A stretch of 64,000 nucleotides of DNA, taken from NCBI GenBank assembly GCA_009884515.1, contig RHHX01000001.1, positions 254,956-318,955 on the forward strand, given 5' to 3'. Of the stretch, positions 18,334-56,316 are shown piece by piece; position 1 is the first letter of the stretch; the number at the start of each line of letters is the position of its first letter. The position numbers and the translations under genes were made by a program. This DNA is from Candidatus Mycoplasma liparidae (GTDB lineage: Bacteria > Bacillota_I > Bacilli_A > Mycoplasmatales > Mycoplasmoidaceae). Below the pieces are notes generated by a model that saw only the letters and a list, made by a program, of their open reading frames with translations, was not told the origin of the DNA and did no database searches.

Positions 18334-19464
18334 ATGATTAGTTTATGTTTTGTCTTATTTGGCGATGCTGATTTTAATATTCAAAAATTAAAATTGAATT
18401 TTGATCAAAAATTTAAATATTTAATTTCGTATAACCAAAGAGATGAAAATGAATATTTAAAATTTACCGAATCAGATTTTATAAAAAATAATAAGAATAT
18501 TCATGCTTATTTAGGTAATAAAGTTTATTGAGGTGATATTTCAATTGTTGATTCAATGGTAAATATTATTAATAAAGCTAAAGAAATATTTAACACAAAA
18601 TATGCTTTTGTAATTGATAGTAAAGCTGTTTTAATAAGAAGTTATGATTATATTTTAAATAAACTTGAAAGTAATGAAAATTGTAATTTTTTTGATTTTA
18701 ATGCAAATTGAAAGACAATTTATCGAACAATATATAAAAAAGATGGATTTCATCATTATTATAAGAATATGACGACTTTATTTTATGTATTTAGAAATTA
18801 TGATTTTAAAAACACAACTAGAGAAGTCGGGATGGGAGGTCTAATACGTGTCAAAAAAATAATTTATACTGCTTTTAAAAATAGAAAAAAATATTTAAAA
18901 CAACTTTGAAAAGAAAAAAAATATTCAGAATATTTTTTAATTCAAAAGAAATATTTAAAATCTTTTGGTTGATTTTTTTCAATTCACTTTATTTACTCAA
19001 ACGATAACTTTTGAGTAAGTGAGTATCATGGCTTTAAACCTGAAATTTTCTTCGGAAAAGAAAGTTTAACAGAATATGATAAAGAATTATTAAATAACTG
19101 TTATATGAATTTCGGATTTAATTTTTCTGGTAATTTGAATTACTTATATGATCTTGTAAATTCAGATATTTTTAAGAAAAATTATGAAATGTTTAAAAAT
19201 ATTTGAGCTCCAGAAGAATGTATTTTTTCAGCATCATATATTGAATATAATAAAAATTGAAAAAACGAAAAAACATATACTTATATTTTTAGAAATTTTA
19301 GAGTCTTTTCAAAAAAGAAAAAAAATAATGAATTAAAAGAAATACTTTTTAATGAATCAGATCCTAATTATGGGTATTATTTTTTTTACCGACAAGTTAT
19401 TAATGAAAAAGAATTAGAACAAATTGAAAATTTTTTGATTGAAAATAAAGAAAGAATGAATTAA
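18334..19464 (+). CDS. Trp-rich cytoplasmic protein, paralog A; possible GT14 (core-2/I-branching-like) glycosyltransferase
   Basis: An RBS ggagg lies upstream. The frame was checked as open with 10 TGA codons (376 aa). VYWGDISIVDSMVNII resembles the GT14 V-WG-S-V motif. Confidence 0.6.
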
Positions 19465-19552: not shown

Positions 19553-20677
19553 ATGATTACTTTATGCTGTATTTTATTTGGTGATGCTAATTTTAATATT
19601 GAAAAATTAAAATTAAATTTTAATGAAAAATTTAAGTATTTAATCTCATATAATCAAAGAGATGAAAATGAATATTTGAAATTTGTAAAGTCAGATTTTA
19701 TAAAAAAAAACAAAAATATTCATGTTTATTTAGGTAATAAAGTTTCTTGAGGTGATATTTCAATTGTTGATTCAATGGTAAATATTATTAATAAAGCTAA
19801 AGAAATATTTAATACAAAATATGTCTTCATAATTGATAGTAAAACAGTTTTAATAAGAAGTTATGACTATATTTTAAACAAACTTGAAAGTGATGAAAAT
19901 TGTAATTTTTTTGATTTTAATAAAAATTGAAAAACAATTTACCAAAATAAAAAAGATACTTATTATCATAGACCACGAATTATAACTACTTTGTTCTATT
20001 TATTTAGAGATTATAATTTTAAAACTCCAATGGGAGGAGGGTGAAAAGAAGGTTTAATTCGTATTAATGAAATTCTTAGTATTGCTAAAAAAAATAAAAA
20101 AGAATATTTAAAGCGACTTTGAAGAGAAAAAAAATATTTTGAATATTTTTCAATTCAAAAAAAATACTGAAAATCATTTATCAGAATTTTTTCGATTAAC
20201 TTTATTTCCTCATATAGTAATTTTTGAACAACAGAATATCATGGTGCTGATCCTAAAATCTTTTTCGGAAAAGAAACTTTAACAAAAAATGATGAAGATA
20301 TACTAACTAAATGTTTTCTAAATTTCGGATTTAATTTTTCTGGTAGCCTAAATTATCTATATAATCTCGTAAATTCAGATATTTTTAAGAAAAATTATGA
20401 AAAGTTCAAAAATATTATTGGTCCTGAGGAATGAATTTTTTCTTTATCATATACTGAATATAATAAAAATTGAAAAAATGAAAAATCATATACTTGTACT
20501 TTAAGAAATTCAAAAGCTTATTTTAAAAAGAAAAAAGAAAACGAATTAAATAAAACACTTTTTAATAAATTAGACCCTAATTATGGTTATTATTTTTTTT
20601 ATCGAAAAATCTTTAATGAAAAAGAATTGGAAAATATCAAAAAGTTTATAAATAAAAATGAAAATACATTAAACTAA
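19553..20677 (+). CDS. Paralog B of the preceding gene (tandem duplicate)
   Basis: It is collinear with 18334-19464 over its full length, for example MITLCCILFGDANFNIEKLKLNF versus MISLCFVLFGDADFNIQKLKLNF. The frame was checked as open (374 aa). Confidence 0.6.
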
Positions 20678-21958: not shown

Positions 21959-21960
21959 CA

Positions 21961-22573
21961 CTCATTCATAGGTATTTCTTATATTTACTAAAAATTGTTA
22001 TTAGTAAAATATTACATAGAATCGTAAAAATAATTAAAAATCTTTACTCCTTACTAATGAAGATTTTTTTCATGAAATAAAAAGGTTTTTATATACAAAA
22101 TGTAAGATATAATTAAGAGATTAGAAAAAATTTTCGAAAATGAAACATGGATTCATACTACTTTTTCTAATGGGAATAGACTTCATTTAAAATTTGATAT
22201 TAATTCGCTACCACATTGTTTTGGAATACAAAAAATACAAAAATATAAAAAAAAAAATTCTGAAGATATCATAGATAAAATAAAGGAAAACGAATAAATA
22301 TTCAAAAGATAAACAACAACTCAACAATAAAAAATGATTCCAAAGCACTTATATATAATAAAATTGAATGTGTTAACATTTTCTTTTATATAAAAAAATT
22401 TGCTATGTTTTAATTCGTCTATTAAAAATTCAAAATTAGATCATAATTTTGACAGCGTTTATATTATATCTGTAAGAAAAATTGAAAAAGACAAACAATT
22501 AAAAAGGTTTTTAACCAAAAATAACCATATTGCATCTATGAAAAAGATAGCATTAGTACCAAAAAATGAATAG
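21961..22573 (+). repeat. Degraded copy of the ~0.65 kb unit found intact at 47281-47941
   Basis: The leader, hairpin and coding part are collinear with 47281-47941, for example ttcatgaaataaaaaggtttt and ccacattgttttggaataca. Confidence 0.85.
22100..22573 (+). pseudogene. Pseudogene of the 177-aa protein encoded at 47405-47938
   Basis: Codon 2 is TAA where the intact copy has CAA. There are further stops and an internal deletion relative to the intact copy. Confidence 0.85.
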
Positions 22574-22623
22574 ATATTATTCTACAAAACAGTTAAAAAT
22601 GAACTAATCTAGTTTATTTTTTA

Positions 22624-22973
22624 TTAATCATATCATCCACCACTATTAACATAACCTGCTTTTCATAAAACATTAGCAAAATCATTTGCTTATTTTACAC
22701 ATTCACCTCAACTAAGGAGACCAATTTTATCATAACCTCAAAATGCTTTTAGTAGTCCATTACTACCAGTAGGTCCATCAAAAAAAATAATTCTTTTATA
22801 AGGGACCACTAGAACCTATTCCCTCAGAATAAGTTCATCGATAAATTTTATTACCAACAATAACTTCAACAGGGTTAGCAACAATGCTAATAGCAACTAT
22901 TGATAAAATAGTTAGAGTTAATAATGCTGCACCTACTATAAGAATACTTATATATTTTTTTTATATTATTCAT
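22624..22973 (-). pseudogene. Disrupted gene for a signal-anchored, Trp/Gly-rich protein
   Basis: The ATG frame stops after 28 codons. A one-base change in the A8 run (plus-strand T8 at 22955-22962) would give MNNIKKYISILIVGAALLTLTILSIV. More frame breaks lie downstream. Confidence 0.6.
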
Positions 22974-23108
22974 TTATTTTTCTCATAATATTATAATTTT
23001 CTTTTCCCTTATTATTTATAATAAAACATCATTAGAAATAGTTATTTAATATTTTTTTCCTTTATTTATTAATAATCAATTAAAATATTACTTTATAAAG
23101 GAATTTTA

Positions 23109-24239
23109 ATGATTTTAAAAGAAAATTTTTATATCAAAAATATCTTTGAAAAAGATAAGCAAACTATCTTTTTTGACCTTGAAATGGATAAGTATCATTT
23201 ACTACAAATAGGTGCTATCAAAGTCAAGAATAACAAAGTTATCGATAAAATTTCACTATCTTGTTTTAATAGAAAAAAATTGACAACATTTATTCAATAC
23301 TTTTTAAAAATTGATGATCAAAGTTATTTAAAAGATTCTGATTGAGAAATCTATGAAAAGTTTCATAAGTTCTGTTTATCAAGTGATTATATAATTAACT
23401 TTGGTAGTTGAGATGGACACTTTATTAAACTATTAAGATATAAAAACTCTCATAAAGTATCAGGTGAAACAAATGAGAAGTTAGAATTTATTGATATTGA
23501 TGAATTTGCTCTTTGAAAAAAGTACAAAGTTAGATTATCACTAGATGGGTGATCTAATGTGTTTGATTGTGAAAATAAAAACTCTCATGAAGCTTTATTT
23601 GATTCTTATAAACTTTATAATGTTACAAAAGCATTCATTGAAAATGAAGAAGCTGATTTAACTGAAAAAATATTTTTTGAATCAATAAGACCTAGAAAAA
23701 CAATTAATAATATTAAAGAAATTTCTAAGCTTAATTTAAATCAAATAAAAGAAAATGGTTTAGAAAATACCAAGAAGATAACTTTTATTAGTTATAAAAC
23801 CTCAGTTAACCACTTATCACCTACCTATGATGCTGATGATTCAAATAGAATTGATAGAGAAAAGAGTATCAACATTAATATTATTGATGTTGATATGAAT
23901 GGGAAAATTATCAAAAGTATTAAAGAAGAATTTGTTTTAGTTGGTGAAAACATTTATAATGAAGAAAAAGAAATTAAAAATATTATTGTCAGAACAAACA
24001 TATTAGATAATTTAGAACAAACATTAATAATCAGTAATCACTTTAATAAAGATATTGCCCAAGCTTATTTTATAGAAAATAAAAATTTATTTCTTTTTTA
24101 CAAAATTAATTTAACAAAATTAACGGATTATTATCAATGAAGAAATAATGAAAAAGCTTCTTTAGAAAATAAAGAATCCCTTAAAAAATTTATTGATTGA
24201 TCTTTTTTAGTAGTCAATAAATATATAAAAAAAACTTAG
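23109..24239 (+). CDS. DEDDh-type 3'-5' exonuclease domain fused to an uncharacterised C-terminal half
   Basis: Two track ORFs are in the same frame, joined through TGA (checked; 376 aa). Exo I is IFFDLEMD, Exo II-like is NFGSWDGHF, and Exo III is NSHEALFDSYK. Confidence 0.65.
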
Positions 24240-24261: not shown

Positions 24262-25645
24262 TTAATAAGAAGGATTATTTGTAATATATTCTCGTTTAAC
24301 TATTTTTCTGATTTCAGTTATTTCTTTTTGGGTTATTTCATTATTTAGAACTTTATAATTGTTTAAAGATTTATTAAAATCTTCGATTGTATATTCTCAA
24401 GCTTTATATTTATCTCATTTTTTGTAATTATTATGATTTTCAATTTGACACATAATTCTTAGTAAATTAGTTTTAAAATTTTCTTCTTGATACCATTCAT
24501 CAATTTGTTTTCATCTGATATCATATAGGGCTTCAAATGACTCATCAGATTTAATTCTAATACCCATATCTATTATTACCTTATACATTCCTGTATTAAT
24601 AATATGGAACTTATATAATTTAGGTAAATAATCATGAAGTTTTTCATAACGGTTCATTAATTCATATTTGCTAACTTCTGTTTTGTTCTTTTTTAATACT
24701 TGAATTTTTCTGTTTTCTATTGCTGAACCATAAGGGCATGATATGCAACCAAGTCTTTTAAATCTTAAATTTTGTTTGTCTAAATCCAAATTATGATCAA
24801 AATTATAAGCTTCGTTAATTTCTAATCTTTTTAGTTTTATATATCTTCAAACATCTTTCTCATTTCAAATAGATAATGGCCTACTCATAGGTTTTTTATT
24901 ATTAAAAATATTACATCCACTATCAATTCATGATTTTTTTCTCATTATTGATTCACCTGCCATGGTTCCAATAAAACTAGGACGATTATCTTTTTTTAAC
25001 CCACCTTTTATATAAGTACAACATTTTTCTGAAAAAGGTATAAGAACCAGATAAGGTGTTTTTTGGGGAATAATCCTGATATTTAGCTGGAATTTCAGGA
25101 AATTTCGACATTTTATCATCAAGTAAAAATAATTGTGCCTTACTTAATTTAAAATATGTTGTACTTTCAATATTAAAAATTCAGCTGCTTAAACCTGTTT
25201 TGCTTTTAGAATTTTTTACCCTATTAAGTAAAACAGATGTTTGTTTTGAAAATATTGGATAGCCCTTTTCATCAAGAATTTGATTTCAGGGCATTTTAGG
25301 AGGTTTTATTAATAATTCTTTTATGTATTCATTTTTTTCTCGATATTTTTCACAAGTGTCTTTAATAAACTTTAAAGTTGATGGAAAGGTAATTTCAACT
25401 GCATAAGCAGGTATTAAATATATTTTTGATTTTAATTCTTTATGAACTTCATTAACAAGATGAAACAAAATACTAGAATCCTTACCGCCACTAAAGGAAA
25501 TAGTTATTTCTTCATATTTATTTTTTTCAGCTCATTCAATAAATTCTTTTATTTTCTTTTTTGCTCAAATAATTTTATCATTTAATGGCATATATTTATT
25601 AAGTTCACTAAAATGAATTTTTCTATTTTCGCTACTATCAATCAT
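24262..25645 (-). pseudogene. PAPS-reductase-like PP-loop ATPase gene interrupted by one frameshift
   Basis: The N-terminal frame (ATG 25645) carries ITISFSGGKDSSILF and ends at TAA 24986-24988. The C-terminal frame opens at 25143, carries IPFSEKCCTYIKG, IGTMAGES and RLGCISCPYGS, and ends at TAA 24262-24264. Confidence 0.75.
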
Positions 25646-25676: not shown

Positions 25677-25700
25677 AAAAGCAACTTTAGTTGCTTTTTA
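25677..25700 (-). terminator. Hairpin overlapping the stop of the PD-(D/E)XK gene
   Basis: The stem is aaaaagcaac / gttgcttttt with a 4-nt loop. Confidence 0.55.
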
Positions 25701-26574
25701 CTGTTAAATAGTTTTTAAGTTCTTCTAATTTTTTTAATGATGAATCTGTTGCATTAATTGTAATACTAGCATCTTTCATTGCTCCTCATTTTTTAACTAT
25801 AATTTCAGGTAAATTTTCATCAATAAATAGATGAACTCGAATATTTTCTAAATCTACTGTATATGTATTTAAAATATCATTTTCAGAATTTGCATTTATA
25901 TCAATTCATTTTTTCTTTTTTGTTTTTAATAAATCAGGAAGCGGTTCTAATAAATCATATAAGTCTAATATAGTCTTTGCATCCCTAATGCAAATAAATT
26001 TAACTATGATTATTTTTTTATTTTTTGCTTCTTCTAATTGTCTTATGCTAATAATAAATTCATTATTTTTTTTAGTTGCAGCTTTTACTTCTAAAAAAGT
26101 ATCACCATACTTAAAATCATATAATTCTTCATCTATTAAACGCAAATTATTTTTGAAATCTATATCTAGAATATTTTTACCTTCTATCATAAATAAAGCT
26201 TCAGCTATATCACCATAAATCCTTTTTCTAATATCTTTTATAAATTTTGATTTTGAAAAATATTCAATTATTTTTTCGAAAGCAGATTGGATTGATTTAT
26301 TTTCGTTTAATAATATTTTATTGATTTCTGTACAAACTTCCTCTAAAAAATCAAGATCAAATACTTTTTTATTAAAAGAAAAGTAATGGGCAGAAATATT
26401 TTTATTAATTTTATTATTAAATATTTTATATTCACCTTTGTATTTAATATGGTCATACTTTATTTTTTCAAGATCACCTAAATGCAGATTATTGTAATCT
26501 ATATTTGAAATAAATAATCCATAATTATCATTGTTATTTATTATATCTATTATTCAATTATTTTGATTTTCCAT
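25687..26574 (-). CDS. PD-(D/E)XK motif protein (nuclease-fold candidate), third gene of the operon
   Basis: The frame was checked as open (295 aa). Motifs are RIYGDIAEALFMIEG, then LYDFKYGDTFLEVKAATKK. The ATG at 26572-26574 overlaps the Z1 gene's 3' end by 17 nt. Confidence 0.7.
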
Positions 26575-27958
26575 AGTTTGTGCCCCTAACTAAATCTAAT
26601 TCTTTATCTATTTTTCTTAATTCTGGCTCGATAAGGGAAATATTTTGAATTTCTCCTTCTTTAAAAAGATTAATATATCTTTCACAATTTTCAAGAGCAT
26701 TAAATGTTTTTTCATCCATTAATATTTTCATATGTTTTACTCGATATTCTTTTCTATACCCAAACCATCTACATCTTTGTAATAAAGTATCAACAGTGAT
26801 AATTTCATTTGGAGTGTTCAGGAATAATTCAACCATTAAATTTTCAAATGTATTACCTCTTGAAAGTAAGTGTCCACCAATAATTATTTTGTATGTTTTA
26901 TTTTCTATTCCTTTTTCTTGATTAATATTTTCGGAATTTAGAATTATTATTTCTATTCCGTCGGTATATTTTTTAACAAATTCAATGAATTTATCTTTTT
27001 CAATTGATGTTTTTTCAAAATACTTATTATAAAAAAAATCATAATTATCTTTCATTGATCTGATTATTTTCGAGCAACTTCTTGCTATTTCTTCATGCTT
27101 TGATGTTTCTAAAAATCAATTAATTAATAAATCAGAATCAATATTTTTTACTTCAAAACTATCTTTTTGTTCAAAATATAAATTATATGAAGCAATAAAA
27201 TGTGTAATTATAGATTTTCTTAATTTTGCATGTTGAATATCTTCGCCAGTTTCTATATCATCTTCTAAATTAGTGATATATATTTCTTCTTTTTTTTCAT
27301 TAAAATATTTTCAACCAGTATAACCATCTCCTGGTTTTCACGAAAATATTTTTCTAGCTTTTAAAGAAATAGAACTACTACTTAAAATATTACCATATGG
27401 TGTTGCAGTAACTTTTAATAGTTTTGAATTATAAAATCTTTCAAATATTTCTTTAATTGCTACATATAATGCACTAGGATTACTTTCTGATTTTTCTATA
27501 TTAATTGAACCAAAATCAGATTCATCATCAATTATTAAAACTTTTTTATCTCTTAAATCAATATCATCAAAAATATTTTTTCTAAGATTATCAATAGTTT
27601 TTGCATTTTTAATGATATTGAACAATGATGGTATATTTTTATTGAATGATTTTTCAGAATCTTTTATAATTTGTATTTGCAATTTTCCTGATGTTGTAAA
27701 TTCTATTAATTCTTTTTCTAATCTTGTTTGTGTCTGATTAAGTAAAGAATTAGTATTTCCTCCAAAAATAATAATATAGTTATATTTTAAGTCAATAGCT
27801 GTTTTAATTATTTCTAATATTTTTCTTGTTTTTCCAGATTGAACTTGTGCGATACATAAAACAATTTCATCTTTATCTGATTCTAAAATATTCCGAAAAT
27901 TATATTCTTTGTTTGTGAATATTTCTTTATTTTTTATTTTTTGACCAAGTTCTCACAT
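26558..27958 (-). CDS. Z1-domain protein with an N-terminal P-loop NTPase module
   Basis: The frame was checked as open (466 aa). Walker A is AQVQSGKTRK and Walker B-like is VLIIDDESDFGS. The Z1 hallmark is IIGGHLLSRGNTFENL...VDTLLQRCRWFGYRKEY. Confidence 0.8.
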
Positions 27959-27969
27959 TTTATCACCCA

Positions 27970-29742
27970 CTATATTTTTTTACAATATGAAACAACATCA
28001 TTAAATGTTGTTATAAAATCTTTTTTAACCATATCATTTATTGTGTTAACTTCATTTGAAATTATCATAATAATAATAATTGGATAAATAATTTTTCCTC
28101 TTATGTTAGTATCCCCATTTATTAAAAGAGGTTTTCAAAAGGAGTGATCATTATTAAAAAAAACTTCAATTCTTTTTTCATCTTGGTTTCTTTTAATTTT
28201 TATTAAATCAGAACCTAATTTATTACTTTCATATATTCTTGCTTCATATTCAGTATCATAAATAAAAAACTTGAAAAAATTATCTCCATTTTCATCCTTA
28301 TTAATTGAACAATTAATATTAGATAAATGATTAGATACAATATTTTTAATAGTTTTTAATTCATCACTATCAACCTTCTCATTTTTTTGATATTTAGTTA
28401 GTTCTACAATATGTTTTATTATTCCTCATAAAGATCTATATAAAAATTTAGTTTGTTCTTGAAGGACTAAATCCGAACTTTTGTCTTTTTCTTCATCATA
28501 TGATCAATCAAATTTAGATTTATTTTTATCAGGACTTTCAATACCAGTTAAATTTATTTCACCATACATTCACCTATAAGTTGGATCAGCTTTTGATTCT
28601 GTAAACATAAGATTACTACATTGTTCACCCTCATTTGGTCCATGATTTATTGCTCTGTCAATATGATATGTAGTCAATCCGGTATATTTTTGTTTGGAAA
28701 AACTATTTTTATCATTTTGAAAATCACCACCTAATATACCAAATGAAATTTTAGTTTCATTTCTATTAAGACGTATTTCTCTTTCAAAAAATAGGTCTTT
28801 CGCACCTAGAAATTTTTCATATGATTCTATTCTTAAATCTAAAAAAGCATTAATGTAGTTAATTGAAGGAAGAACTAATGTTTCGCCTCTTTCACTACAA
28901 TAATTCTTTATTTTTTCTTGTTTTTCGTCATCATTTAAATAATTAATTTCCTCTAATTTTATTAATTCTTTTTTAATTTCTAATTTTATTTCATTAATTT
29001 TATCATCAGATATTTGTTTACTTTTTCCCTTTTGATAATTTATGAATTGACTAAAATTAAACGGAATATTTTTGAATTCTTGAATAAAAACTTTTCCATT
29101 TAAACCACTCCTTTCATCAGCTGCAATGTATGAGAGAGATATTTTTAATCCTCTTTTAATTAATTTAGAATATCTTTGTCCTAATGCATTTTTTATTTCT
29201 GTAAGTCTTGCCTTATTTATTTTTCTATCTCTATAAATATTAGAAATGATAATTTTTGTTCCTGATTCCGAATCAGGAAAAATATTTTCATTTGTTTCTA
29301 CTGCTTGTAATTCTATTGCTTTTGATTTATTTTTTGTTTTTGTTTCAAAATCAATACAATATGTTTTTTCGTCTTTCTTTTTACTATAAACTAAACCATC
29401 TTCTCCAAATCAAAAAATGCCTAATTTCATTCCTATTCCATATTGATTGTAGTCATTATTTGTTTTTCCTTCTCTACTATTAGGTTGCATAGCATTTAAT
29501 AATTCAAGCATATCCATACCATTAGCATTATCACTAATAGTAATCTTTTTGTTTTTAACATCACTATAGTCAATCTCGATATTAATTATTAAACCATCTA
29601 TAGGATTATCAGGATTTTTATTTTTATATGAAGAAACAGAATTGTCAATAAATTCTGATAAAGCTAATCAATGAGTTGTTCTTTCATTTTGATAACCTCT
29701 TATTAATTCATATGTTGCTACAAGTTTTATTGTATTATCCAT
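27970..29742 (-). CDS. GHKL (HATPase_c_3 / MORC-like) ATPase, first gene of the operon
   Basis: The 590-aa frame was checked triplet by triplet and has no TAA or TAG. It is missing from the track because six TGA codons and a scarcity of in-frame start codons break it up. N box is LSEFIDNSVSS, G1 is ITISDNANGMD, and G2 is NQYGIGMKLG. Confidence 0.8.
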
Positions 29743-29803
29743 GCATGTATTCCTTCATTTTTGATCTATAAAATTATATTGAACATTCTTAAATATTAAA
29801 ACC

Positions 29804-29816
29804 AACAATAGTTGTT
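29804..29816. promoter_or_regulatory. Short inverted repeat (aacaa-tag-ttgtt) in the divergent intergenic region; operator candidate
   Basis: It lies between the GHKL-operon start (29742) and the XRE gene start (29855). It is short and could be chance. Confidence 0.2.
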
Positions 29817-29854
29817 CTATAATTATGATTATAAGTAGAAAAATAGAGAATGAG

Positions 29855-30193
29855 ATGGACAAAAATGAAAACAAATCAAAACCCAACGGGGGGGGGGGAG
29901 ACAGTTATAAGCAATATGTTCCTAATATCAAATTATTCATTACTGAATTAAGAAATAAACTACTGAAAATAACTATTGAACAGTTTATTTTCCAAATGGG
30001 CTGAAATAATGTGCAATATTATCAAAAAATAGTTAATGGTTATTATGATAAAAATCATGAAAAAAAATACAGTATTCCAACAATAGATATATTATTTGGA
30101 GGAATTAGTCACGCTATTTATAATTTTGATAATTGAAAAAATAAAGAAAATGAAATTAATGATTTAATAATAGAATTTTTTAAAAATTGATAG
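29855..30193 (+). CDS. XRE-family helix-turn-helix regulator containing a poly-G tract
   Basis: The product is MDKNENKSKPNGGGGDSYKQY..., with an HTH-like ITIEQFIFQMGWNNVQYYQKIVNG. It is in frame with the current G11 tract and ends at TAG 30191-30193 (112 aa). Confidence 0.65.
29888..29898 (+). repeat. Homopolymeric G11 tract (coding, codons 12-15 of the XRE gene)
   Basis: Direct count gives G at 29888-29898. This is the longest G/C run in the window. Confidence 0.95.
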
Positions 30194-30248: not shown

Positions 30249-31194
30249 ATGATTAATACGATTGAATGAGAAAAATTTTTAAAAAATATTAACAAAAAAG
30301 CAATATTAAATAGTAAAGAATACAAATGGTTAAAATATCCATATAAACCAGCATTATTATTATCAATAATTGATAGTGTTGAGAGTGGAAAACTGTTCAA
30401 TCAGGATATTGATTTAAATAATTTGAATATTATTAAAAAATATTATGAATATATTACATATAATTATGAATTTTGAAGTTATATTACAAAAAATGAAAAA
30501 TCAAAAAAAGTTTGAGATACCGGGATTAAAAACATTACAGTTCAAAAGCAAGTATTAAGAAATATTTGTGAAATGCCAGCTTCTAAATTGATGACTAATA
30601 ATTCTATTTTTCAATTTGATAATGAAAGCAAGAAAATAAGAATAAATTTATCTATCAATTCAGATGAAATTGAAGAATATAGAAAAGAATTAATTAATGT
30701 TTGTATTTATTCATTAAGAGATAGCAATAAAAATGCTTATGAATGATTAGAAGAAAATAACTATAGTCAATTTAAAGAATATGTTTATGAAAAAATATAT
30801 AGAAAAACTTTGACGTTTTCAAAAAGTAGAGGATATTTGCAACATGTTTTTGCTACTAGTGTTAAAGATAGAGATGGTAAATGCATTGTATGTTGTATTA
30901 ATAGACCGGAATTATTACAAGCATGTCATATCAAACCTTTTTCACAATGTTCTAATCAAATAGAACAAACTGATGCTAATAATGGGATAACTTTGTGTGC
31001 AAATCATCATAAATTATTTGATGTTGGTTTGTTTACATTTGATGAAAAATGAAATATAAAAACTAATAATAAAAAATTATTAGATGATGATATTGATCTT
31101 TTTTTTAAACAATATGAATTTTGTTATTCAAATATTAAAAAAGAATTTGGATTTTTAAATACTTATTTAAAATTTCATAATGAAAAAATATATA

Positions 31195-31211
<17 letters not shown>
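30249..31211 (+). CDS. HNH nuclease (HNH_2-type C-terminal domain) with an uncharacterised N-terminal ~200 aa
   Basis: The frame is open with 6 TGA codons (320 aa). The C-terminal part reads LQACHIKPFSQCSNQIEQTDANNGITLCANHHKLFDVGLFTF, and the N-terminal part reads KYPYKPALLLSIIDSVESGKL. Confidence 0.75.
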
Positions 31212-50629: not shown

Positions 50630-50637
50630 CCCCCCCC
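50630..50637. repeat. Homopolymeric C8 (G8 on the minus strand), about 80 nt upstream of the HNH gene start
   Basis: This is a direct count. It is the second longest G/C run in the window. Confidence 0.9.
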
Positions 50638-55069: not shown

Positions 55070-55230
55070 CAAAATTCAGATATATATATATAATAATCAA
55101 TCACTGTAAATATTTATAAAAAAATATTTTATCAATCAACTATATCATATAAAGTAATAAAGTTATTATTGAAAATGAAAATTTAATTGATTTTATAAAC
55201 GAGGTTTCTTTAGAAATAAAATTTTTAATA

Positions 55231-56316
55231 ATGAAGAAAAATAAAAGTGATGAAATTATTTCTGAATTAGTTGTGCATAATATTTTATATATCGCACTGT
55301 TTATAAAAATTTTTAAAAGTATTCTAAGTAAATCTGCGGATTTAATATTTGTTGATCTGCCATATAATATGACATTAGATAAAATATTAAAAAGACCAAA
55401 CGGCGATGTTTTTAGTGGAATGAATGATGAATGAGATAAATATGAGTCATTAGAATCTTATGATAAAGAATGCTCAATTTGATTAAAAGAATCACTAAGA
55501 ATATTAAAAGATAATGGGAGTTTATGAGTAATAGGTTCGTTTCAAAATATTCATAGATTAGGTTATTTACTTCAGGATTTAGGATGTTGAATTATTAATG
55601 AAATAGTTTAAGAAAAAAGTAACCCTGTTCCTAATTTTGCTGGGACAAGATTTACTAATAGTCAAGAAACATTATTGTGAGTTGTTAAAAATAAGAAAAG
55701 TAAATTTACATTCATTTATAAAACTATAAAACATATTAATGGTGGAAAACAAATGAAATCTATTTGAAGATTTTCTATCGCTGCAGGTAATGAGAGATTA
55801 AAAGATGAAAACGGTATAAAAATTCATTCAAGCACTATTAGAAGGAATAATATTAGCAAGCACAAAGCTACAATGATATAGTTTTAGACTCTTTTAGTGG
55901 AACAGGAACAACTTGCTCACGCTTCTAAATTATGAGGCAGAAGATTTATTGGAATTGAAAAAGATCAAAAATATTTTGAAAGTTCATTAAAAAGGGTGAA
56001 TTCAGTAAAAGAAAACATAGAAAATGACTGTTTAAAATTTGCTGTTTTAGATAAAAACCCCGAACCTGTTTCATTTAAGGATTTGATGAAAAACGGAATT
56101 CTAAAAGAAAATGAACAAATAATAATTAAAGATGAAATTTATAGTTTTAATAATGATGCAACCATAACTTATAATCAAGCTAATCTCTCACTAAATCAAT
56201 TATGTAAAATAATTTTTAAAAAATCAACAAACGCTTGAACAAATATAAACTTGCTTAATGGTGAAAATATAGATTCTTTGAGAGGGAAATATAGAGATAA
56301 AGTTTTATCTTTATAA
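55231..56316 (+). pseudogene. Dead CcrM/M.HinfI-like (beta-class, N6-adenine) DNA methyltransferase gene
   Basis: Motif IV is ADLIFVDLPYNM, followed by NGSLWVIGSFQNIHRLG. TAA at 55609-55611 replaces the conserved Trp in NEIV-stop-EKSNPVPNF. The region downstream of IKIHS, where this family carries its conserved motif, is scrambled by several frameshifts. The C-terminal part GRRFIGIEKDQKYF survives. Confidence 0.75.

Follow-up and report, generated by a model that had tools for sequence, protein, structure and literature searches.

We analysed a window of 64,000 nucleotides (nt) from contig RHHX01000001.1 of Candidatus Mycoplasma liparidae, in which three adjacent genes encode a GHKL ATPase, a Z1-domain protein and a PD-(D/E)XK-type nuclease candidate; together we call them the triad, and all positions below are those of this window unless another contig is named. 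The G+C content of the window is 21-29%. When open reading frames (ORFs) were called with translation table 11, every gene in the region was fragmented, and table 4 (TGA = Trp) restored three ORFs on the minus strand (Table 1). A preliminary description, made from the sequence alone, had reported three intact minus-strand genes separated by an 11-nt gap and joined by a 17-nt overlap. Our independent table-4 ORF calling reproduced this arrangement, with the gap at 27959-27969 between the GHKL and Z1 genes and the overlap at 26558-26574 between the Z1 and DUF4420 genes. The motif strings that the description quoted were all present in the translations, and its assignment of the products to the GHKL, Z1 and PD-(D/E)XK (DUF4420) families was borne out by Pfam scores above the gathering cut-offs. 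In addition, the Z1 protein gave a second Pfam match to ResIII (28.2 bits, cut-off 22.5) and matched the PADLOC model 'Helicase_II' at 1.9e-39; neither the GHKL nor the DUF4420 protein is represented by a PADLOC model. A PDB sequence search with the three proteins gave nothing useful (best match of the GHKL protein, MORC2 with E = 0.23; none for DUF4420).

When we compared the triad with 13-20 homologues, all residues conserved in at least 90% of them were kept in the window, apart from two: a G-to-A change at the first Walker-A position of the Z1 protein, and a conservative I-to-V change in the GHKL protein. The conserved residues comprise the N-box and the G1 (DNANGM), G2 (GIGMK) and G3 (SGT) boxes of the GHKL protein, and Walker A/B, TATP, motif V and QRxRWFGYR of the Z1 protein. 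In DUF4420, the pattern GDxxE ... D..DF ... ExK is at least 90% conserved among 17 homologues and is retained in the window.

The preliminary description had also noted that neither a C5 methyltransferase nor an AIPR protein accompanies these genes. Local hidden Markov models (HMMs) likewise detected no Dcm-like ORF anywhere in the 64 kb, and an AIPR-like ORF was found neither in the whole window with an HMM built from one sequence, which has limited sensitivity, nor in Pfam scans of the flanking ORFs. The sole methyltransferase in the window is an N6_N4_Mtase protein with a C-terminal RAMA domain at 55153-56313. It is broken into three consecutive ORFs and is thus a pseudogene or frameshift-bearing, in agreement with the dead N6A enzyme that had been described at 55 kb.

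Table 1. Features of the locus in the 64-kb window (aa, amino acids; a dot stands for no strand).
Feature	Position	Strand	Evidence or remark
PAPS-reductase/PP-loop family gene, frameshifted; candidate modification enzyme	24262-25645	-	Pfam PAPS_reduct on both halves
Frameshift site	25032-25036	.	A5 on the plus strand (T5 on the coding strand); T4 in the nearest strain
DUF4420 PD-(D/E)XK-type nuclease candidate, 295 aa	25687-26574	-	Pfam DUF4420 1e-6, 28.7 bits (cut-off 27)
DEAD-Z1 SF2 helicase-like motor, short form, 466 aa	26558-27958	-	Pfam Z1 6.5e-19, 68.8 bits (cut-off 25)
GHKL/paraMORC-like ATPase, 590 aa	27970-29742	-	Pfam HATPase_c_3 6.6e-18, 65.5 bits (cut-off 25)
Divergent intergenic region between GHKL operon and small gene, 112 bp	29743-29854	.	
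Small protein, 112 aa, conserved core of ~65 aa	29855-30193	+	Beside the PAPS gene in most lineages
G11 tract, 5' part of small gene, in frame; candidate phase-variation switch	29888-29898	+	
HNH_2 endonuclease, 320 aa, intact, helical N-terminal domain	30249-31211	+	Pfam HNH_2 2.1e-14

The frameshifted PAPS-family gene and the age of the break

Beyond the DUF4420 gene, 41 nt downstream and on the same strand, begins a gene of the PAPS-reductase/PP-loop family (hereafter the PAPS gene). The preliminary description had left room for a cognate modifier encoded immediately past the part that it had read. A candidate does lie there, as had been foreseen in spirit, but it belongs to the PAPS family and is not the C5 methyltransferase that had been named. 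In the window this gene consists of two overlapping ORFs (24986-25645 and 24262-25119), which match the N-terminal and C-terminal parts of PAPS_reduct, respectively. When its DNA was aligned with that of relatives, we observed one frame-breaking indel, and the remaining indels were multiples of three. The nearest retrievable relative, JGI contig L123, shares 99.4-100% identity with the window at this locus and encodes an intact PAPS protein of 460 aa; five T in the window against four T in L123 is the only frame-breaking difference between the two. Compared with the more distant contig L001, the halves show ratios of nonsynonymous to synonymous substitution rates (dN/dS) of 0.13-0.19, and the neighbouring housekeeping genes show 0.23-0.30. 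The window copy also retains 56 of the 58 family-invariant residues, and both of its changes occur in the intact homologues P0286 and P0287 as well. Because the near-identical L123 is intact and the dN/dS of both halves is low, the break must have arisen extremely recently, or else the homopolymer was sequenced wrongly.

If the frameshift were an error of assembly or sequencing in a short homopolymer, the window would carry a complete and working set of genes. Such an error would agree with a sole defect that amounts to one extra T, with the strong purifying selection and the retained invariant residues in both halves, and with the intact gene of L123. On the other hand, the housekeeping genes of the window show no other frameshift-like breaks, and the Z1 gene differs from that of L123 by 7 nonsynonymous and 1 synonymous changes, against totals of 9 and 24 for seven genes nearby (Fisher p = 0.003), as would be expected if the modifier were really lost. 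At least five of the Z1 replacements are derived in the window strain, and position 37 in Walker-A, A in the window (G37A), is G in all other homologues examined. The GHKL proteins of the window and L123 show zero amino-acid differences. The excess in Z1, which involves small numbers, favours a real loss of the modifier and would fit a motor that has since been relaxed or attenuated. Based on these observations, we consider a misread homopolymer somewhat unlikely.

In either case, the proposal of the preliminary description that a reduced three-gene version is kept intact and may act without self-marking is not supported at this locus, where a PAPS gene adjoins the triad, is linked to it in relatives and is broken by a single base relative to L123. 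The three-gene state is younger than the divergence of 0-0.6% from L123, and therefore the argument that it is maintained has no time depth. The window copy is best read not as a maintained minimal system but as a complete system that has just been decapitated, or one that was mis-read. Moreover, the statement that most other genes of the island are decayed was too strong: the HNH_2 gene, the small gene and a gene of 376 aa are intact, and the PAPS gene is the one clearly broken neighbour.

Linkage of the PAPS gene to the triad and occupants of the modifier slot

When GTDB genomes were scanned with a profile of the PAPS family, we obtained 30 loci, 28 of which were of Mycoplasmataceae type, including the complete genome of Malacoplasma muris RIII-4. 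These loci were annotated with our own HMMs, and clustering of their PAPS proteins at 80% identity resolved 24 lineages within the Mollicutes. In relatives whose Z1 identity is 72-77%, the order is GHKL (598 aa)-Z1 (462 aa)-DUF4420 (291 aa)-PAPS_reduct (464 aa, intact), in the synteny of the window with relA-hisS-aspS and the divergent HNH_2 gene; a relative with 38% Z1 identity has all of these genes in another arrangement. The PAPS gene adjoins a GHKL gene in 16 of the 24 lineages, mostly together with Z1 and DUF4420 and often across gaps of a few tens of bases. The order in these 16 is triad-PAPS, PAPS-triad, divergent, or with HNH_2 and the small gene in between. In another two lineages, the PAPS gene pairs with a PLD(NgoFVII-like)-SNF2 fusion and a GmrSD_N/DUF262 protein. 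Two lineages without an effector are taken up below, and the remaining PAPS contigs were too short for their neighbourhood to be assigned. This distribution is that of a gene which acts as a portable module.

In the two lineages with the PLD-SNF2 fusion, L015 (359-4998) and L026 (11631-16092), the PAPS and small genes are joined by the genes for the fusion (1022-1100 aa) and the GmrSD_N/DUF262 protein (451-464 aa) instead of the triad, and L026 carries genes for AIPR and a long-form Z1 protein at a greater distance downstream. Two other contigs (L002, 14919-15491; L004, 6780-7352) contain a second, fragmentary PAPS-family ORF that covers the last ~75 profile positions, at a distance of 1.2 kb downstream from the intact PAPS gene; it may represent what is left of an earlier cassette.

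We then considered which genes occupy the corresponding position in homologous loci. A metagenome scan with a Z1 profile gave 80 loci. In 65 of them, Dcm accompanies a Z1 protein of ~715 aa, mostly with GHKL and often with DUF4420, which bears out the earlier statement that Dcm is the normal companion of such triads. The three low-GC loci have a PAPS gene instead of Dcm, among them L052 with the order PAPS-GHKL-Z1-DUF4420. Additional loci were sampled by individual short-form Z1 proteins. Spiroplasma alleghenense has HNH_2-Dcm-x-GHKL-Z1-DUF4420, and two contigs (L124, 5556-10062; L126, 5558-10060) have a Dam-type MethyltransfD12 gene followed by GHKL and a Z1 gene of 430 aa, plus a gene for a 255-aa protein. 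A DndC-like PAPS_reduct gene precedes GHKL-Z1-DUF4238 in L125, a non-Mollicute contig with 32% GC and translation table 11. In Spiroplasma sabaudiense Ar-1343 (L127, CP006934.1 453782-471323), a DndC-like PAPS_reduct gene follows the triad in the order GHKL-Z1-DUF4420-PAPS_reduct-x-GmrSD_N, in which x is an unknown protein of 293 aa. The PAPS proteins of L125 and S. sabaudiense belong to a clade other than that of the window. They match PADLOC DndC at 1e-80 and 4e-87, and score 255 and 263 bits against TIGR03183 DndC, below its cut-off of 290. These loci show four occupants of the modifier slot in homologous GHKL-Z1 modules, namely Dcm, a Dam-type methyltransferase, a DndC-like protein and the PAPS clade of the window. 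The main reason why we read the window PAPS gene as the self-marking component is that this slot holds Dcm, Dam-type or DndC-like genes elsewhere.

Some further features of these loci were observed. L124 contains a separate cluster of long Z1, AIPR and MutH-like genes nearby. In L125, DUF4238 stands in place of DUF4420 and an AAA_15/AAA_21 ATPase gene lies ahead of the cluster. The PADLOC profile PDLC03333 ('MTase_II') matches DndC-like proteins over ~300 residues at 1e-42 to 1e-53, and seems to contain a DndC-like domain.

For the family of the window enzyme, an intact orthologue was examined. It scored 59.8 bits with Pfam PAPS_reduct, and its closest defence-family profile was PADLOC BrxP (3.6e-14); it also matched phrog_424 of PHROGs, a phage 'PAPS reductase', at 1.5e-23. 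The protein is 25-28% identical over ~75% of its length to PAPS-reductase-family proteins of Clostridium, Ruminococcus, Vibrio and Enterobacter phages. An AlphaFold2 (AF2) model built with 29 homologues reached pLDDT 90 and pTM 0.86, and supports a confident prediction of a PAPS/APS-reductase fold. It matched CysH, APS reductase, CysD and the PAPS domain of FAD synthase, more distantly TilS, TtuA and NcsA, and among viral proteins phage PAPS reductases and COG3969 proteins. The structures of DndC, SspD and BrxP were not among the matches of this fold search, and therefore structure does not narrow the chemistry of the enzyme. The family has an SGGKDS PP-loop and invariant cysteines C211-C212 and C303-x-x-C306 (CC-x90-CxxC). 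In APS reductases, a -CC-x~80-CXXC- pattern binds a [4Fe-4S] cluster (PMC1175818), and the cysteines of the PAPS family form a probable [4Fe-4S] site as well.

A candidate restriction-modification cassette and its alternatives

On the other side of the triad, across the divergent intergenic region, lies a small gene that is found divergent from or directly downstream of the PAPS gene in most lineages. Its product showed no homology in Pfam or PDB sequence searches. We considered an Xre/C-protein-type helix-turn-helix regulator, and neither the PDB profile search nor Pfam scans of the individual members gave significant support. The in-frame G11 tract of the window is also G11 in L001, G10 in L002, G9 in L003 and G6 in L123, which is 99.5% identical; it is G12 in five further assemblies of the same species group, and the flanks are identical throughout. 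Most other lineages have a G/C tract of 7-12 nt at the equivalent position, and two have it inside the 5' end of the PAPS gene. The only other G/C run of at least 6 nt in the 64 kb is a C8. Since the G tract is variable, and only this one other such run occurs in the 64 kb of a genome with ~23% G+C, the tract looks like a phase-variation switch. The C8 run is at 50630-50637, between small ORFs near 50.2-51.3 kb. Promoter and terminator scans gave generic promoter-like matches only, as in the 112-bp divergent intergenic region, and these were no commoner than in shuffled sequence (66 sites against 68.6 expected in this AT-rich DNA).

The HNH_2 gene follows the small gene. Full-length homologues of its product adjoin PAPS cassettes in at least five other lineages (L011, L018, L026, L032 and L036), with or without the triad, whereas HNH proteins beside Dcm-linked triads share the C-terminal HNH half only and differ in their N-terminal domains. 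We therefore treat HNH_2 as a putative facultative second nuclease of the cassette. The AF2 model of the protein (pLDDT 86) matched VcaM4I best in the PDB (5e-6), and TagI, both in the HNH part only. Its N-terminal domain was considered as a sulfur-binding, SRA or EVE reader, and in the model this domain is mostly helical and matches nothing, so that we assign no reader domain to it. The NCBIfam model 'PT-DNA_restrict' gave 33 bits against a cut-off of 180, again in the HNH part only.

Based on these observations, we suggest, with a probability of roughly 60%, that the triad is the restriction half of a cassette of five to six genes, in which the PAPS-family enzyme would be a non-methyl self-marker, and that the modifier of the window has just been frameshifted or was mis-read. 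The predicted cassette is [HNH_2] <- [small phase-variable protein] <-> GHKL - DEAD-Z1 - DUF4420 - PAPS-reductase-family enzyme. The PAPS-family enzyme would place a non-methyl mark on self DNA by adenylation chemistry. By analogy with DndC, SspD and BrxP, this mark is most plausibly a backbone phosphorothioate, which is our leading guess. DNA that lacks the mark would be attacked by the triad. The DEAD-Z1 domains of H.CglI, the only biochemically studied Z1 protein that we found in the literature, form a complete superfamily 2 (SF2) motor that translocates on double-stranded DNA with ATP and is needed for cleavage by the R-subunit (PMC5861437), and the window DEAD-Z1 protein may likewise be a motor that moves along double-stranded DNA at the expense of ATP. 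Iyer, Abhiman and Aravind (2008) predicted that paraMORC GHKL ATPases, SFII helicases and restriction-endonuclease (RE)-fold proteins jointly form restriction-modification systems (PMC2292703). These predicted systems mostly come with Dcm, Vsr and AIPR, and DNA looping between recognition and cleavage sites was proposed for them (PMC2292703). In line with that proposal, the GHKL protein of the window could clamp or loop DNA, and DUF4420 would be the nuclease that cuts it. The poly-G tract in the small gene may turn the cassette on and off. If the modifier side is switchable in this way, restriction has to be harmless when the modifier is off, and the simplest arrangement would be one like that of Type I, Type III and BREX systems, in which restriction depends on the modifier or its partner. 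The window strain would survive with a broken PAPS gene for the same reason, as restriction would need the modifier or its partner.

Several observations weigh against this proposal and bear on two alternatives. First, the window strain apparently tolerates a broken modifier beside intact restriction genes. Second, a Malacoplasma metagenome-assembled genome (L010) has Abi_2-GHKL-Z1-DUF4420-like genes with no detectable Dcm or PAPS modifier within 10 kb. Both would be expected if the GHKL, Z1 and nuclease genes were a self-sufficient module that works without self-marking, for example as a modification-dependent or ATP-gated nuclease, with the PAPS gene as an unrelated passenger of the island. 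This explanation leaves the adjacency of PAPS and GHKL genes, seen across several orders and often at very short distance, without a cause, as it does the Dcm, Dam or DndC-like genes that fill the same slot in homologous triads. The young age of the three-gene state in the window leaves its maintenance without support, and a nuclease that depends on modification would turn against its own cell if its operon also encoded a DNA modifier. Taken together, we regard a self-sufficient module as highly improbable.

Third, two of the 24 lineages (L021 and L028) carry the PAPS and small genes beside housekeeping genes, without a nuclease or other effector. Fourth, the nearest relatives of the PAPS protein are phage 'PAPS reductases' to which no function has been assigned, the intact orthologue matched neither DndC nor SspD in NCBIfam at E <= 0.1, and the PADLOC DndC models matched weakly (0.002-0.009), on the N-terminal fragment of the window. 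Fifth, neither PADLOC nor Pfam detected a DndD/SspC/BrxC ATPase or a DndE/SspB protein among the proteins of the locus. The third and fifth points, the unassigned role of the phage relatives and the apparently tolerated loss of the gene would suit a PAPS protein that belongs to the system in another role, as a specificity, sensor or effector subunit, or that functions in tRNA or sulfur metabolism and shares only its regulation with the system. As an effector it could, for example, adenylate or thiolate invading DNA or a nucleotide signal. We nevertheless find a role other than self-marking unlikely, since the gene takes the position of three established kinds of DNA modification enzyme, joins two unrelated nuclease/helicase effector sets as well as DUF262 as in phosphorothioate systems (PMC12914056), and has a phase-variable companion of the kind typical of restriction-modification loci. 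Finally, the differences in homopolymer length come from metagenome assemblies and not from reads.

With the PAPS-family enzyme taken as the self-marker, the proposal can be carried one step further, which we do tentatively. The Mollicute-specific PAPS Fe-S enzyme and its small phase-variable partner may be a compact, portable DNA-marking module of a new kind, which would produce phosphorothioate without DndA/D/E-type helpers, or another adenylation-dependent mark, and would replace methyltransferases for at least two unrelated restriction machines (GHKL-Z1-DUF4420, and PLD-SNF2 with DUF262). If so, the widespread phage 'PAPS reductases' that are now deemed sulfur-metabolism genes would modify DNA as enzymes of this type. 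Among the defence-island modules that have never been resolved biochemically, GHKL-Z1-nuclease operons rank with the commonest, and a single restriction module that works with four kinds of modifier would have to read 'marked versus unmarked' generically, which gives a handle on its mechanism. Should the Mollicute enzyme mark DNA, it would represent a non-methyl modification system of very small size in genomes that are close to minimal, perhaps also a new barrier to the genetic manipulation and genome transplantation of mycoplasmas, and a clue to the role of the PAPS reductases that phages encode. Intact versions are present in two cultured organisms, Malacoplasma muris RIII-4, at about 847-868 kb of NZ_CP177248.1, and Spiroplasma sabaudiense Ar-1343, which has the DndC-like version.

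Relation to known systems and the surrounding island

Judged from its sequence features, the triad belongs to the paraMORC-Z1-RE-fold class. It has the same families, order and tight operon structure as the Dcm-linked paraMORC-Z1-RE-fold ('NRE'/DUF4420) systems predicted to act in restriction-modification (PMC2292703), to which an HNH protein is sometimes attached. In the window, the GHKL boxes are intact, the Z1 motor motifs are present with A as the first Walker-A residue, and DUF4420 has an RE fold with E-D-ExK. The linked C5 methyltransferase of this class is absent, and a PAPS-family gene occupies the modifier slot. The window further differs from the Dcm-linked systems in its short-form Z1 (~430-510 aa compared with ~715 aa) and in the added small protein with a hypermutable tract. 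As far as we found in the literature, the canonical Dcm-linked paraMORC-Z1 system has been characterised computationally only. In the searchable literature, as far as it shows, three aspects of the present loci are new: the replacement of the methyltransferase by PAPS-reductase-family enzymes of two independent clades, one of them DndC-like; the portable module of PAPS and small genes; and the hypermutable tract of this module.

The likeness to CglI and NgoAVII (PMC5861437, PMC4267653) is confined to the domain level of the DEAD-Z1 H-subunit. The window locus encodes neither a PLD/B3 R-subunit nor a methyltransferase, and has GHKL and the PD-(D/E)XK candidate in place of the R-subunit; moreover, the window Z1 protein (466 aa) ends soon after the Z1 domain, so that the C-terminal domain of H.CglI (residues up to 632) is absent. 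The MZA systems (MzaABCDE) also combine a MutL-like GHKL ATPase with a Z1 protein. However, the window scored only 14.6 bits with MzaB (cut-off 850) and 69.9 bits with MzaC (cut-off 1500), and AIPR (MzaE) was not found. MZA systems are not known to include a methyltransferase, which is a point in favour of a self-sufficient GHKL-Z1-nuclease module. The window locus is neither an MZA system nor a CglI-type enzyme.

In Dnd (DndC), Ssp (SspD) and BREX type 4 (BrxP), the modification enzyme is a PAPS-reductase/PP-loop protein (PMC12914056; PMC12707154), as is the frameshifted copy in the window, and some PAPS loci share DUF262 partners with phosphorothioate systems. The brx genes of BREX type 4 (brxPCZL) have been genetically validated as phosphorothioate-synthesis genes (PMC12914056), and the known phosphorothioate systems also depend on an ATPase of the P-loop type and on a small component that recognises DNA (PMC12707154). 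In the window locus, GHKL and DEAD-Z1 are the sole ATPases, and the product of the small gene is the sole small partner. In addition to the partners named above, the window locus lacks a linked cysteine desulfurase, and its effectors are wholly different. Phase-variable restriction-modification loci occur in Mollicutes and other host-adapted bacteria. The window locus resembles them in that a 5' coding region holds a G/C tract of variable length among near-identical strains, but the tract lies in the small gene, or in the PAPS gene in two lineages, and not in a methyltransferase or specificity gene.

Next, we compared two conspecific contigs, L001 (8200-11700) and L005 (8180-11700), which are orthologous to positions 25900-29742 of the window. 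The RelA, HisS and AspS proteins of these contigs are 100% identical and the PAPS, HNH_2 and DUF4420 proteins are 95-98% identical, whereas the Z1 proteins are 74% and the GHKL proteins 62% identical. The nucleotide identity drops to 57-64% at GHKL residues ~230-470 and recovers gradually on both sides. This pattern suggests that a possible specificity region has undergone allelic replacement or is under diversifying selection. Such variation between alleles, typical of regions that confer specificity or are exposed to anti-restriction, is a hint in the same direction.

The remaining part of the island lies downstream of the PAPS gene. The intact gene of 376 aa mentioned above is located at 23109-24239. 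Beyond it, positions 21960-23046 comprise ~1.1 kb without an ORF of at least 80 aa and without a counterpart in L001, L005, L013 or L123; at the equivalent place, L123 (1-2100) carries genes for a KAP_NTPase and an SLFN-like helicase. The region bounded by the dNK gene and aspS behaves like a hotspot of variable defence genes. Further along, two tandem paralogues of unknown function (376 and 374 aa) with near-identical N-termini are encoded at 18334-19464 and 19553-20677, and similar serial copies are also found in L001 and L005.

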